A stretch of 64,000 bases of DNA from Escherichia coli (lineage in GTDB: Bacteria > Pseudomonadota > Gammaproteobacteria > Enterobacterales > Enterobacteriaceae), in assembly GCF_050320075.1 (NCBI RefSeq), contig NZ_CP190018.1, one strand, 5' to 3'. Shown here one piece after another: positions 40,658 through 53,750 of the stretch. Numbering within the stretch: the stretch's first letter is position 1; each line of letters begins with the position of its first letter. Made by a program: the position numbers and the translations under genes. Below the pieces are notes generated by a model, which saw only the letters and a list, made by a program, of their open reading frames with translations, was not told the DNA's origin and ran no database searches.

Positions 40658-40950
40658 TATAAATGTCCCATTAAAGCTGGATAAATAAATTGACGGCGGC
40701 ATCGGTAATTTGAGATTCGTTATAATTAAAAACGAACACAGAAAAAATAAGTATAATTTTGGTGAATGTTTTTGACATGATTAAATCCCTTTACTTTATT
40801 TATTTCTGACATAATACGTTACTCCCTTTTATTATTAACGATCTGTTTCTCATTTTTCTTTAAACCTGCCTGTAACAGAATGTTAATAAGACATGATTGT
40901 TGTGGCAGGATCTGCAATAATTAACAATTATCCACTTCACAGAGAATGCT

Positions 40951-41622
40951 ATGCAGTACCCGATTAACGAGATGTTCCAGACCCTGCAAGGTGAGGGTTA
41001 CTTTACCGGCGTCCCCGCCATTTTTATTCGTTTACAGGGATGCCCGGTTGGCTGTGCCTGGTGCGACACCAAACACACCTGGGAAAAGCTTGAGGATCGG
41101 GAAGTCTCCCTTTTCAGCATTCTGGCGAAGACCAAAGAGAGTGATAAGTGGGGGGCGGCGAGCAGTGAAGACTTGCTGGCTGTCATTGGTCGCCAGGGAT
41201 ACACCGCGCGGCATGTGGTGATTACGGGTGGTGAGCCTTGCATTCATGATTTGCTGCCACTTACTGACCTGCTCGAAAAGAACGGTTTTAGCTGCCAGAT
41301 AGAAACCAGCGGTACTCATGAAGTGCGTTGTACGCCGAATACCTGGGTCACCGTGTCGCCAAAGCTAAATATGCGTGGTGGTTATGAAGTATTGTCGCAA
41401 GCCCTGGAGCGAGCTAACGAAATCAAACACCCAGTTGGACGCGTACGTGATATCGAAGCACTGGATGAATTGCTTGCGACGCTGACCGATGATAAACCGC
41501 GAGTCATTGCACTGCAGCCGATTAGCCAAAAGGATGATGCCACACGTTTGTGCATTGAAACCTGCATTGCGCGTAATTGGCGTTTGTCGATGCAAACACA
41601 TAAATATTTAAATATTGCCTGA
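40951..41622 (+). CDS. queE: 7-carboxy-7-deazaguanine synthase (radical SAM)
   Basis: 223-aa ORF with radical-SAM Cys motif (CPVGCAWCDTKHT); recognised as QueE (YgcF). Confidence 0.9.
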   Translation: MQYPINEMFQTLQGEGYFTGVPAIFIRLQGCPVGCAWCDTKHTWEKLEDREVSLFSILAKTKESDKWGAASSEDLLAVIGRQGYTARHVVITGGEPCIHDLLPLTDLLEKNGFSCQIETSGTHEVRCTPNTWVTVSPKLNMRGGYEVLSQALERANEIKHPVGRVRDIEALDELLATLTDDKPRVIALQPISQKDDATRLCIETCIARNWRLSMQTHKYLNIA

Positions 41623-41960
41623 TTACACATTTATAAGCGTTATAAATGGGTGGAACCTGTAAAGACTTCTACTCATTTATATTCTTTGTCGCCTCTAAAA
41701 AACCTCCATTTTGCCCATCCTGGACTAATCATTATCATTTTCTACAAATTCTGTGGCGTTAATTTTTCGTTGGAGTGAAAATTATTACGTCGGAGTTTGG
41801 TGGATTTTAGTCGGTATAGAATTACTTTAAATATTTGGCTTTTCAATCAATGAATTAAGTGCTCTTTAACATAATGGATGTGTTGTTTGTGTGTTTCTGT
41901 TAAGTTGGTAGATTGTGACTGACTTAAAAAATCAATAATTAATAATAGGTTATGTTTAGT
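41623..41960 (+). promoter_or_regulatory. CRISPR leader (AT-rich), inferred promoter side of the array
   Basis: 338-bp AT-rich non-coding region immediately 5' of the first consensus repeat; degenerate repeat lies at the opposite end of the array. Confidence 0.6.
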
Positions 41961-43209
41961 GAGTTCCCCGCGCCAGCGGGGATAAACCGTTTGCTGAGTG
42001 TGCATACACACTTGAACATCAGAGTTCCCCGCGCCAGCGGGGATAAACCGCTATCAGTAACAACCTGGTAAATATCGGTTTTGAGTTCCCCGCGCCAGCG
42101 GGGATAAACCGTTTTCGGGGCCATAAATGGCGCTCATTTATGTGAGTTCCCCGCGCCAGCGGGGATAAACCGGGAAAATAAACGCGTTATTCCTTGATGG
42201 GTGCGAGTTCCCCGCGCCAGCGGGGATAAACCGAGCAACAGGTATTTCATATGGCCTGCCGTGCTGAGTTCCCCGCGCCAGCGGGGATAAACCGGCCAGC
42301 GGCGCTGAGTACGACGACCTGATTAAGAGTTCCCCGCGCCAGCGGGGATAAACCGTCAATACAACAGCAATGCTGGAGCTGGAAAAAGAGTTCCCCGCGC
42401 CAGCGGGGATAAACCGTGGTGGGATAGCTGCTCTGCCAGCGTGTCGCGGAGTTCCCCGCGCCAGCGGGGATAAACCGTGGGCGCAGCTCATGTATTCCAA
42501 TAAGGATATGAGTTCCCCGCGCCAGCGGGGATAAACCGAGATTCGCGCAATGTACGGTAAAGACAGCACCGAGTTCCCCGCGCCAGCGGGGATAAACCGC
42601 CATTCTTGTTGTCGTTCATCAAGCGCAGGGGGAGTTTCCCGCGCCAGCGGGGATAAACCGTTTGTTTTGATGATTTATCAGTATATGAATTGGAGTTCCC
42701 CGCGCCAGCGGGGATAAACCGATTTTTGCGCGGCCTGCATGAAACCAGTGGCAAAGTTCCCCGCGCCAGCGGGGATAAACCGGTACCGTTGAGCAATGGT
42801 GGGTAAATGGTGCTGAGTTCCCCGCGCCAGCGGGGATAAACCGATTTAGATACGGCACACAGGAATGCGCTGGATGAGTTCCCCGCGCCAGCGGGGATAA
42901 ACCGCATGGGAGTCCAGATTACAAATTCCAGAATGGGAGTTCCCCGCGCCAGCGGGGATAAACCGCGCCAGTCTGAGGTTTTCCGGTCATACATCGTGAG
43001 TTCCCCGCGCCAGCGGGGATAAACCGACCGTTGCTACACATATGATCAGGCATGTGCCGAGTTCCCCGCGCCAGCGGGGATAAACCGGACGATGAGACGC
43101 CCTGGTGTGCCGCGTTCGTGAGTTCCCCGCGCCAGCGGGGATAAACCGCGTTTAGCTCCGCAATGTTGGATATCACTGATGAGTTCCCCGCACCAGCGGG
43201 AATAAACCA
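41961..43209 (+). CRISPR. type I-E CRISPR array, 21 repeats and 20 spacers
   Basis: 29-bp repeat GAGTTCCCCGCGCCAGCGGGGATAAACCG recurring with exact 61-bp periodicity (41961 + 61n); all spacers 32 bp and unique; last repeat (43181-43209) degenerate. Confidence 0.98.
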
Positions 43210-43680
43210 CCATATAACCCGTTATCTCTTTCTCAAGTTTTTATATTAGCAGTACTCGTATTAAGCAACATATCCACGTAACACCTCATGTTCAAAATAG
43301 CTCTCCATATATGAGAAGTTCACAATTATCGATACAAAAAATCAAATTTAATCAAAGTGTTATTTGTATAATCCTTAAACCGTTAAGAAATTTTAACATA
43401 TTATTTTTTTAATATTAATTAATGCCTGTTAATTTTTTCTTTAGAATAACAGTGTATTTTTTAAGCTTGTTATTCATTGATTAAGTAATAAATCTGGAAA
43501 TTTGTCTTTGTTTTGAGGCTAATGAGTGGTTTTACATAATCGCCTCTATACGCTGTTGATGAATAGTTCTTATGAATAAAGATATCCAGTTCATACTTTA
43601 AGTGAAAATTGATAAAGTGCGATTCGTATTGTCTTTTATTCTAAAGACATCGAGTGTAGTTAATATTCCTTGTAAAAACA

Positions 43681-43800
43681 GGGATAAACCGAACTAGTTA
43701 AAGTTTTTATTATGTTCCCTGCATCAGCGGGGATAAACCGGACTTGTTATCATTTTTTAAGTTGTCGAACTTATGTTCCCCGCGCCAGCGGGGATAACCA
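43681..43800 (+). CRISPR. remnant mini-array (partial repeat, two degenerate repeats, two spacers)
   Basis: GGGATAAACCG fragment (43681-43691), degenerate repeat ATGTTCCCTGCATCAGCGGGGATAAACCG (43712-43740), 32-bp spacer (43741-43772), degenerate repeat ATGTTCCCCGCGCCAGCGGGGATAACCA (43773-43800). Confidence 0.8.
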
Positions 43801-43846
43801 TTCAGGTATGTTCAGGCCGGGCAGTTTCCCGCCCGGTCTTCCTCAC

Positions 43847-45325
43847 TTACGCATTCGACCAGCTCTGGATCGAATCCGCATTCCCCAATTCCCCATGCAT
43901 CACTTCATACGATTTTTTCAGGATTACATCAGTATGTTTGGTTAACTCCTTGAAAATGCCTTTATTCATCGCGTTGTAGCGTTTGGCGTTGCTCTCAACA
44001 GGCATAAAGATATCTTTCACGCGAACCATTTTGTCGACAGCCGTTGCGTAATCCGGGTATAGCCCCAGACCTACCGCCGTATTAATCGCTGCCCCCAGGC
44101 TTGCACAACCATTAATGGCGTTACGGCGTGCCGGAAGGTTGAACACGTCGGCAAAAATCTGCATAAACAGATCGCTGTTCGAACCGCCGCCAGTAATGAT
44201 CACATGCTTTGCAAAGTGATTCATTTCATTACACATATTGTCGTAATTGTTCTTCAGCGTCAGCGCCACGCTTTCCAGTATCGAACGATATATCCATGCG
44301 TAATCCATGCTGGAATCAAAGCCAATCATAATCCCGCGTTTGTACGGTTCCCACGGATTGGTCAGCCAGTCCAGCACCGTCATCAGACCATTACAGCCTG
44401 GCGGCACACAAGACGCTTTTTTGTTGAGCAAATCTTCCGGTGAAAGATCCTGTGCTTTGGCATCCTGAATTAACGACTCGCCTAACATGTCGCGTAGCCA
44501 GCTCACCGTCCACATGCCTTTGCGAATACCGTAACCTTCATACAGCAAGGTTTGCGGAATAGAAGACATAATCGGCCAGTACGCTACCGGATCTTTCGGT
44601 AGTAATTTGCCGTTCATCATCAACGCGATGTAAGTGCCAAGAGAAATTACCGCAGTTTCATCATCCAGTAACCCGGCTCCCAGTGCTTCTACCGGTTTAT
44701 CACTGGTGGTACAAACAACCGGCAGCCCAGCCGGGAAATGTGTCGCCAGCGCGGCTTGAGGAGTGATATGCCCAAGAACAGTGCCCGGCATTTGCACATC
44801 AAACAGCATATGACGGGGGATATTAAACTTCTCCATGACTGCGGCATCTTCACTCCATGCCCAGGTCTTATAATCCACCGGCCACTGACCAAAATAGTTG
44901 GCGATATTGTCTTTAAACTCGCCGGTTAAGCGATGCGTCAGATAACCCGAAAAAGAGGTGACATATGCCACGTCAGGATTCGTATGTTCGTAAGGGCGTG
45001 TAACGCGTGCATCCTGCCAGCTAATCAACGGCGCAGCTGGCGTGCCATCGGCTTTCAATAACGCACGGCAGCAACGGATGGATCCCAGACCAATACCGAC
45101 AATATCTTCTTTATTTCCGGCAAACTGACTCATCAAATCGTGACCGGCAAAGCATAATGATGCCCATAAATCGTCGTCAGGATGTTCTGCGGTATCGGCA
45201 TCTGGCGTGTGCATCGGCTGCAATAAGCCTTTGCCTTCGCAAACCACATTACCTTCCAGATCGTACATCACCACTTTTGTGCTCTGACTTCCACCATCAA
45301 TCCCTATGATGTATTTTTTCGACAT
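43847..45325 (-). CDS. ygcE: FGGY-family carbohydrate kinase
   Basis: 492-aa ORF with FGGY kinase N- and C-terminal domain signatures. Confidence 0.85.
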   Translation of the reverse strand: MSKKYIIGIDGGSQSTKVVMYDLEGNVVCEGKGLLQPMHTPDADTAEHPDDDLWASLCFAGHDLMSQFAGNKEDIVGIGLGSIRCCRALLKADGTPAAPLISWQDARVTRPYEHTNPDVAYVTSFSGYLTHRLTGEFKDNIANYFGQWPVDYKTWAWSEDAAVMEKFNIPRHMLFDVQMPGTVLGHITPQAALATHFPAGLPVVCTTSDKPVEALGAGLLDDETAVISLGTYIALMMNGKLLPKDPVAYWPIMSSIPQTLLYEGYGIRKGMWTVSWLRDMLGESLIQDAKAQDLSPEDLLNKKASCVPPGCNGLMTVLDWLTNPWEPYKRGIMIGFDSSMDYAWIYRSILESVALTLKNNYDNMCNEMNHFAKHVIITGGGSNSDLFMQIFADVFNLPARRNAINGCASLGAAINTAVGLGLYPDYATAVDKMVRVKDIFMPVESNAKRYNAMNKGIFKELTKHTDVILKKSYEVMHGELGNADSIQSWSNA

Positions 45326-52350: not shown

Positions 52351-53124
<774 letters not shown>

Positions 53125-53228
53125 ATCAGCATACTTGTCCTTAGCCTTCTGCAGTGACAGCTGGTAGTACAGCGTGCTTCTGGCCAGCCCTGCAGCCTTT
53201 AACAGGTCAGACTGGCAGTGTCCGCACC

Positions 53229-53750
53229 TCAGGCTCCGGATGACTTTCGTTTTTTCTCCAGCTCCTGGCGCTTTTTTTCCAGGAGATGCTCCTGCATGGC
53301 TTTCAGATATGCATTTTCTGCGCGAAGATAACGTAGCTCATTCTTCATCTCTTCCGGCGTCATGTTTGCCTCGTTTTCATGGGTATCATCAGAACGGGTC
53401 ATGCTTTTCTCCTTCCTGCGCCTGATAAAGGCCTCATTACCAGATTTGCGGTAGCCTTTTATCCAGTTTTTAACCGTGTTGTGGCTGGGAATGTTAAACC
53501 GGGCAGCTACCCGGGGTAGAGACTCAGAATGCCCGAGAGCATAAAGAACCACGCAAAGTTTATCTTCAGGAGAATAGCTACGCTTGTGTCTGCAATCCAG
53601 TGCCCGAGGACCGTGAAGAAGAAAAAGATTAATCCAGTGTGAGAGGCTGGTGTGAGAAAGTTGAAAGAGTTTTGCCGTAGAAATGATGCCTGCATGACCA
53701 GCCAGGTAATGATTTACAGCGGCAAGTTTTACTTCAAATGAATGTTTCAT
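53229..53750 (-). CDS. IS3-family transposase OrfA (HTH DNA-binding, leucine-zipper region)
   Basis: ORF 53229..53759; likely ATG start at 53748-53750 (MKHSFEVKLAAVNHY) giving 173 aa. Confidence 0.85.
   Translation of the reverse strand: MKHSFEVKLAAVNHYLAGHAGIISTAKLFQLSHTSLSHWINLFLLHGPRALDCRHKRSYSPEDKLCVVLYALGHSESLPRVAARFNIPSHNTVKNWIKGYRKSGNEAFIRRRKEKSMTRSDDTHENEANMTPEEMKNELRYLRAENAYLKAMQEHLLEKKRQELEKKRKSSGA
53271..53278 (-). other. candidate -1 programmed ribosomal frameshift site (A AAA AAG)
   Basis: Minus-strand A7G run about 45 nt upstream of the orfA stop, at the orfA/orfB overlap. Confidence 0.6.

Follow-up and report, generated by a model that had tools for sequence, protein, structure and literature searches.

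Two singleton variant repeats in an Escherichia coli CRISPR2.3 array are inherited with their upstream spacers

The closest described arrays and the layout of the locus

The closest described counterparts of the array considered here are the CRISPR2.3 arrays of Escherichia coli K-12 and of natural isolates, which share with it the repeat consensus, the 32-nt spacers and the 61-nt period, as well as the chromosomal position, the side on which the leader lies, the terminal repeat, the CRISPR2.2 remnant and the presence of a cas operon in the genome. Repeat mutations have been surveyed in 4,418 type I-E arrays, where internal repeats average 5.34 mutations per 1000 nt and terminal repeats contain far more (Mitrofanov et al. 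2026, PMC12839519). In K-12, two internal repeats of CRISPR-I (11 and 12) are variants.

There is no categorical difference between these E. coli CRISPR2.3 arrays and the array in the window (the whole 64,000-nt stretch of E. coli DNA that was analyzed): its spacers are lineage-specific, it is long (20 spacers), and two of its repeats are singleton variants. Given 2 changes in 19 x 29 = 551 nt of internal repeat, that is 3.6 per 1000 nt as compared to 5.34 in the survey, and a degenerate terminal repeat, the array is typical. The catalogued internal repeat polymorphisms (PMC12839519; K-12 CRISPR-I) are likewise singletons in non-terminal repeats and occur at a similar density. The two variants are an ordinary property of a known array, already known in kind; what they have beyond the catalogued polymorphisms is population data that show a link to the upstream spacer.

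The window is 100% identical to strain YZLc1-3, an isolate from chicken faeces (NZ_CP123240.1), and a window coordinate equals the coordinate in the respective YZLc1-3 locus (L001) plus 29639. The type I-E CRISPR2.3 (CRISPR-II) array occupies positions 41961..43209 of the + strand and consists of 21 repeats of 29 nt and 20 spacers with a period of 61; by parsing, all 20 spacers (S1 to S20) are 32 nt long and each is unique within the array. With up to three mismatches allowed, the repeat core matches 23 sites in the window compared to 0 in 100 shuffles, which places the array far beyond chance. In NZ_CP123240.1, a feature annotated as 'CRISPR' is located at the same coordinates, between queE and ygcE, and this position between queE (ygcF) and ygcE is the classical CRISPR2.3/CRISPR-II site. 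According to the ORF list and the RefSeq annotation of YZLc1-3, queE (40951..41622, + strand) flanks the leader side of the array and ygcE (43847..45325, - strand) flanks its distal side. Given that the leader lies on the queE side, the array runs from the leader to the distal end on the + strand. The AT-rich leader itself (41623..41960, + strand), recognized in the sequence, ends in GGTTATGTTTAGT, which abuts the first repeat. It is only partially similar to the K-12 CRISPR-I leader, and the promoter-like hexamers at 41919-41946 represent a consensus match only; the counts obtained in a promoter and terminator scan were not above those in shuffled sequences and are uninformative. A search of Rfam retrieved no family at the gathering score, and the hits at E<1 (GadY, Chlorobi-1) are at chance level; none of the CRISPR repeat models gave a match, which says little in the case of an element of 29 nt.

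Among the 21 repeat copies, 18 (repeats 1-11, 13 and 15-20) read exactly GAGTTCCCCGCGCCAGCGGGGATAAACCG, a partially palindromic 29-nt sequence, two contain one substitution each, and one contains three. The latter is the degenerate terminal repeat 21 (43181..43209, + strand; G12A, G21A and G29A), which is identical in all related arrays examined. Further downstream, a degenerate CRISPR2.2 remnant (43663..43801, + strand) includes repeat-like copies at 43712-43740 and 43773-43801 and a weaker one at about 43663-43691, that is, 2-3 decayed repeats and one spacer. This remnant was found in 11 of the 11 related arrays whose DNA reached that far (complete in 10, truncated by the parsing in 1) and also in strain NS-NP030, whose array is unrelated and in which one base of the remnant repeat differs. 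The layout of queE, leader, array, CRISPR2.2 remnant and ygcE is the same in all related genomes fetched.

The type I-E cas operon (cas3, casA-E, cas1, cas2) lies outside the window and is annotated as intact about 20 kb away in YZLc1-3, along with a second CRISPR array located beside iap. Two features of the surroundings can be mentioned in passing. Upstream of queE, the small gene yqcG (40671-40812) is annotated as a frameshifted pseudogene in YZLc1-3 and in 10 of the 10 related genomes fetched at CRISPR2.3, and is intact in NS-NP030; between ygcQ and ygcP, the YZLc1-3 annotation places an IS3-family transposase (52402-53750, - strand) encoded in two ORFs with a programmed frameshift.

Two variant repeats and their recurrence in other genomes

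Repeat 12 (42632..42660, + strand) carries C6T at base 42637 and reads GAGTTTCCCGCGCCAGCGGGGATAAACCG, starting with GAGTTTCCCGCG; repeat 14 (42754..42782, + strand) carries G1A at base 42754 and reads AAGTTCCCCGCGCCAGCGGGGATAAACCG, starting with AAGTTCCCCGCG. We refer to the variant bases as T6 and A1. Both are transitions (C to T and G to A on the + strand) and singletons, with canonical repeats on either side. An earlier note on this DNA had reported precisely these two changes, which proved exact on re-reading and parsing, and had described all other internal repeats as identical, as the 18 non-terminal copies of GAGTTCCCCGCGCCAGCGGGGATAAACCG indeed are.

The recurrence of the variants was assessed in a census of all complete RefSeq E. 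coli genomes (n = 5,426), with 61-nt spacer-plus-repeat junctions as queries; the genome counts given below are not independent events, many of the carriers probably stemming from a few clones. The junction of T6 with spacer 11 (42600..42631, + strand; CCATTCTTGTTGTCGTTCATCAAGCGCAGGGG) is found exactly in 25 genomes, which is every CRISPR2.3 array that contains this spacer. The junction of A1 with spacer 13 (42722..42753, + strand; ATTTTTGCGCGGCCTGCATGAAACCAGTGGCA) is exact in 124 of the 125 genomes that carry spacer 13, the single exception being strain Ch1, where spacer 13 is followed by the canonical GAGTTCC. Thus, T6 co-segregates with spacer 11 and A1 with spacer 13. On its other side, T6 shows no such constancy: spacer 12 (42661..42692, + strand) is preceded by the T6 repeat in 21 genomes and by a repeat with the canonical C6 in 83. 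A single scan of metagenome contigs with a pattern ambiguous for A and G retrieved four contigs, all four with A after spacer 13, and one of these also contains the junction of spacer 11 with T6.

The earlier note had stated that a sequencing error would undo its reading of the repeats. Each change concerns a single base, and the array was read from one assembly, such that an error of sequencing or assembly in this record could in principle account for both of them. However, identical variant-plus-spacer junctions are present in 25 (T6) and 124 (A1) independently assembled genomes and also in the metagenome contigs, which come from separate projects, and we know of no precedent for a systematic error common to all assemblies at non-homopolymer sites. 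Given this recurrence, an error was rejected as the source of the variants, its probability being practically nil.

Linkage to the upstream spacers and the origin of the variants

Altogether 13 arrays were parsed, namely that in the window, eight genome loci and the four metagenome contigs. In these arrays, T6 always follows spacer 11, and the next spacer is either S12 or S19 (strains GMF065 and KE55); A1 always follows spacer 13, and the next spacer is S14, S17 (CFSAN061763) or S18 (266917_2 and two metagenome contigs). Arrays that lack S11, such as those of strains 144 and 266917_2, contain a canonical repeat before S12. Each variant is inherited together with its upstream spacer, whatever spacer comes next. 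The comparison proposed in the earlier note, namely whether the variant repeats are inherited along with their adjacent spacers in related strains, is therefore answered positively for the leader-side neighbor and negatively for the downstream one.

A simple geometric account would explain this asymmetry. When units are deleted through recombination or slippage between repeats, a hybrid repeat would remain, with the 5' part derived from the upstream partner and the 3' part from the downstream partner. The variants are located at positions 1 and 6 of 29, so most of the possible crossover points would fall 3' of them. Because of this location in the 5' part of the repeat, a variant would survive the deletion of downstream units and would vanish when the upstream spacer is deleted. 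This appears to be the simplest reason for the linkage to the upstream spacer and fits every array seen; the linkage would then be a consequence of where in the repeat the variants lie and, to our knowledge, involves no new principle.

All 13 arrays conform to a common spacer order, S1 S2 S3 S26 S22 S27 S25 S23 S4-S10 S24 S11 S12 [S28] S13-S20, to which lineage-specific spacers are added at the leader end in a few strains only; three blocks of this superset are missing from the window array. The arrays of the carrier clade would thus differ mainly by the loss of spacer-repeat units from a common ancestral order, which implies that T6 and A1 predate much of the diversification of the arrays in this clade.

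Some of the related arrays show further peculiarities. The array of Ch1 (L008 2533-2900) has an additional spacer, S28, located between S12 and S13, a repeat with a 1-nt insertion (GAGTTCCCCAGCG...) and a deletion in which the repeat bases GAGTTCCCCGCGCCAG are joined to the interior of spacer 17 via a 9-nt microhomology, CCGCGCCAG; spacer 17 starts with CGCCAG, which resembles the repeat loop. A C28A repeat variant is present in 266917_2 (L006 1891-1919), and a 33-nt spacer is tandemly duplicated in LHM10-1 (L009 2684-2778).

With respect to the origin of the variants, the relevant background is that type I-E acquisition duplicates the leader-proximal repeat, and a change in this template is thus copied into all newer repeats. 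An example is available in YZLc1-3 itself, in the CRISPR2.1 array outside the window (L002 15052-15629), where C13T is present in repeats 1-5 and in the terminal repeat 10 and is absent from repeats 6-9. This leader-proximal propagated variant belongs to the same repeat family and represents the same kind of base change, but unlike C13T, T6 and A1 each remained in a single repeat and did not spread to newer copies. Given their placement between canonical repeats, both appear to have originated in leader-distal copies, whether by mutation after integration or by fill-in errors at integration. At the time of the change, the repeat concerned would already have lost, or would never have played, the role of leader-proximal template for duplication, and such an origin away from the template would account for their singleton state. 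The scenario that we favor with considerable confidence is that T6 and A1 are near-neutral transitions that became fixed in two internal, non-leader repeats and have been inherited vertically within an E. coli clade.

The evidence on timing differs between the two. For A1, the canonical G that follows spacer 13 in Ch1 argues for a later, post-integration point mutation, with the ancestral G inferred from this one genome, whose array has other oddities (the 1-nt insertion and the microhomology deletion). For T6, the census of complete E. coli genomes revealed no CRISPR2.3 array in which S11 precedes a canonical repeat, so this variant could date from the integration of S11, as a gap-fill error, instead of being a later change.

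An altogether different reading of A1 takes base 42754 as the final base of an off-register 33-nt spacer, which replaced base 1 of the repeat, so that the A was born together with spacer 13. The base indeed lies exactly at the spacer-repeat junction, A follows spacer 13 in all but one of 125 genomes and in all four metagenome contigs, and E. coli does have 33-nt spacers (spacers 4 and 5 of K-12). However, in Ch1 the canonical GAGTTCC stands after the same spacer 13, the period remains exactly 61 where genuine 33-nt spacers give 62, and two compensating changes would be required as opposed to one transition. An off-register spacer accordingly appears improbable, and a transition in a pre-existing repeat is the reading adopted here.

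Predicted effects on the crRNA and the case for selection

The mature type I-E crRNA consists of a 32-nt spacer between a 5' handle of 8 nt and a 3' handle of 21 nt; the latter forms a 7-bp stem capped by a tetraloop, and the Cas6e cleavage site is at the 3' base of this stem (PMC5965381). Numbered along the repeat, the stem comprises the pair U5-A22 followed by C6-G21 through C11-G16. ViennaRNA predicts the 7-bp stem and tetraloop, which is the form of the Cas6e substrate, for the canonical, T6 and A1 repeats, with fold energies of -15.1, -12.2 and -15.1 kcal/mol, respectively. In the spacer-13 crRNA, A1 occupies the first position of the 3' handle, a position outside the hairpin. T6 affects C6-G21, at the hairpin base beside the Cas6e cut, and turns this pair into a U-G wobble; the hairpin is retained in the prediction. 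T6 would thus weaken but preserve this hairpin, which serves as the 3' handle of the spacer-11 crRNA and is also expected to direct the cut that releases the spacer-12 crRNA.

Strain 582 has acquired C6T independently, in a K-12-like CRISPR-I array (repeat 4; L019 2501-2529), at a position where K-12 itself is canonical. Given this second origin of the same change and the persistence of the variants in many genomes, T6 and A1 are most likely neutral or nearly so. It is conceivable, if unlikely, that the C6U wobble measurably impairs cleavage by Cas6e, in which case spacers 11 and 12 would be under-produced or would be released as an unprocessed dimer, forming a natural 'muted' pair fixed in the lineage; the recurrence of C6T in strain 582 would then suggest that silencing single spacers in this way is tolerated or even favored. 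PMC5965381 and PMC11317134 describe crRNA anatomy and contain no mutational data for this position that would bear on the tolerance of Cas6e for a wobble at the base of the stem.

A more general proposal would be that the variants are under selection, either because reduced homology shields the adjacent spacers from deletion or because T6 tunes or silences the spacer-11 and spacer-12 crRNAs. A link between repeat mutation and spacer retention has been proposed (PMC12839519), T6 lowers the predicted stability of the hairpin by 2.9 kcal/mol at the pair adjoining the cleavage site, and the independent C6T in strain 582 can be taken in the same sense. The arrays themselves suggest otherwise: S11, the spacer beside T6, is missing in 83 of the 104 genomes that keep S12 (clonal counts), with no sign of protection, and S14-S17, downstream of A1, have been deleted in several arrays. 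Moreover, the density of variants is at or below the type I-E background (PMC12839519), and one mismatch per 29 nt hardly alters the homology. Finally, for S11-S14, the spacers around the variants, a search for protospacers yielded no match in phage or plasmid collections at E<=1, which also speaks against selection. Taken together, these observations make selection on either variant very doubtful, and near-neutral change remains the preferred explanation.

When the whole array was used as the query, spacer-length matches in phages or plasmids were obtained for spacers 1 and 5 only, among the matches listed, the other matches listed being further CRISPR arrays or chance hits. Spacer 1 together with the preceding repeat-final G (41989-42021) matches at 32-33 of 33 nt P22-like Salmonella phages (in the EaE gene), Escherichia phage D6 and many E. 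coli plasmids of roughly 50-150 kb; for spacer 5 (42233-42265), 31 of 33 nt agree with phiV10, HK629 and an O157 typing phage.

An exact copy of spacer 11 also occupies the first spacer position of a short CRISPR2.1 array on the iap side, with a GTGTTCC-type repeat, in 12 other genomes, among them LHM10-1 and VE-T9. In both of the iap-side spacer-11 loci that were fetched (L009 and L010; 2472-2561), the cas operon is deleted, with cas3 truncated after 1,471 nt and fused precisely to position 1 of a repeat at a junction without homology. Self-targeting of cas3 or local DNA by spacer 11 was considered as an explanation of its place beside the truncated cas3 and rejected, as no match was found at up to 8-9 mismatches in the window or in the cas regions of YZLc1-3 and K-12. 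The presence of the same spacer in two different arrays of two lineages may reflect either independent acquisition or exchange between arrays.

The variants as lineage markers

The suggestion in the earlier note that the variants mark lineage history and can aid the analysis of spacer deletion is borne out by their co-inheritance with spacers. Its further description of the variants as breakpoints was loosely worded: they serve as markers that bound the positions of repeat-repeat crossovers and are not breakpoints themselves. T6 and A1 are stable, clade-specific markers that are of use in strain typing and for little beyond that, and they open no new question in CRISPR biology. In combination with the spacer order, they allow related E. 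coli CRISPR2.3 arrays to be placed on one deletion history, and they provide a worked example of how variants in the 5' part of a repeat co-segregate with the upstream spacer and how singleton variants arise in leader-distal copies.
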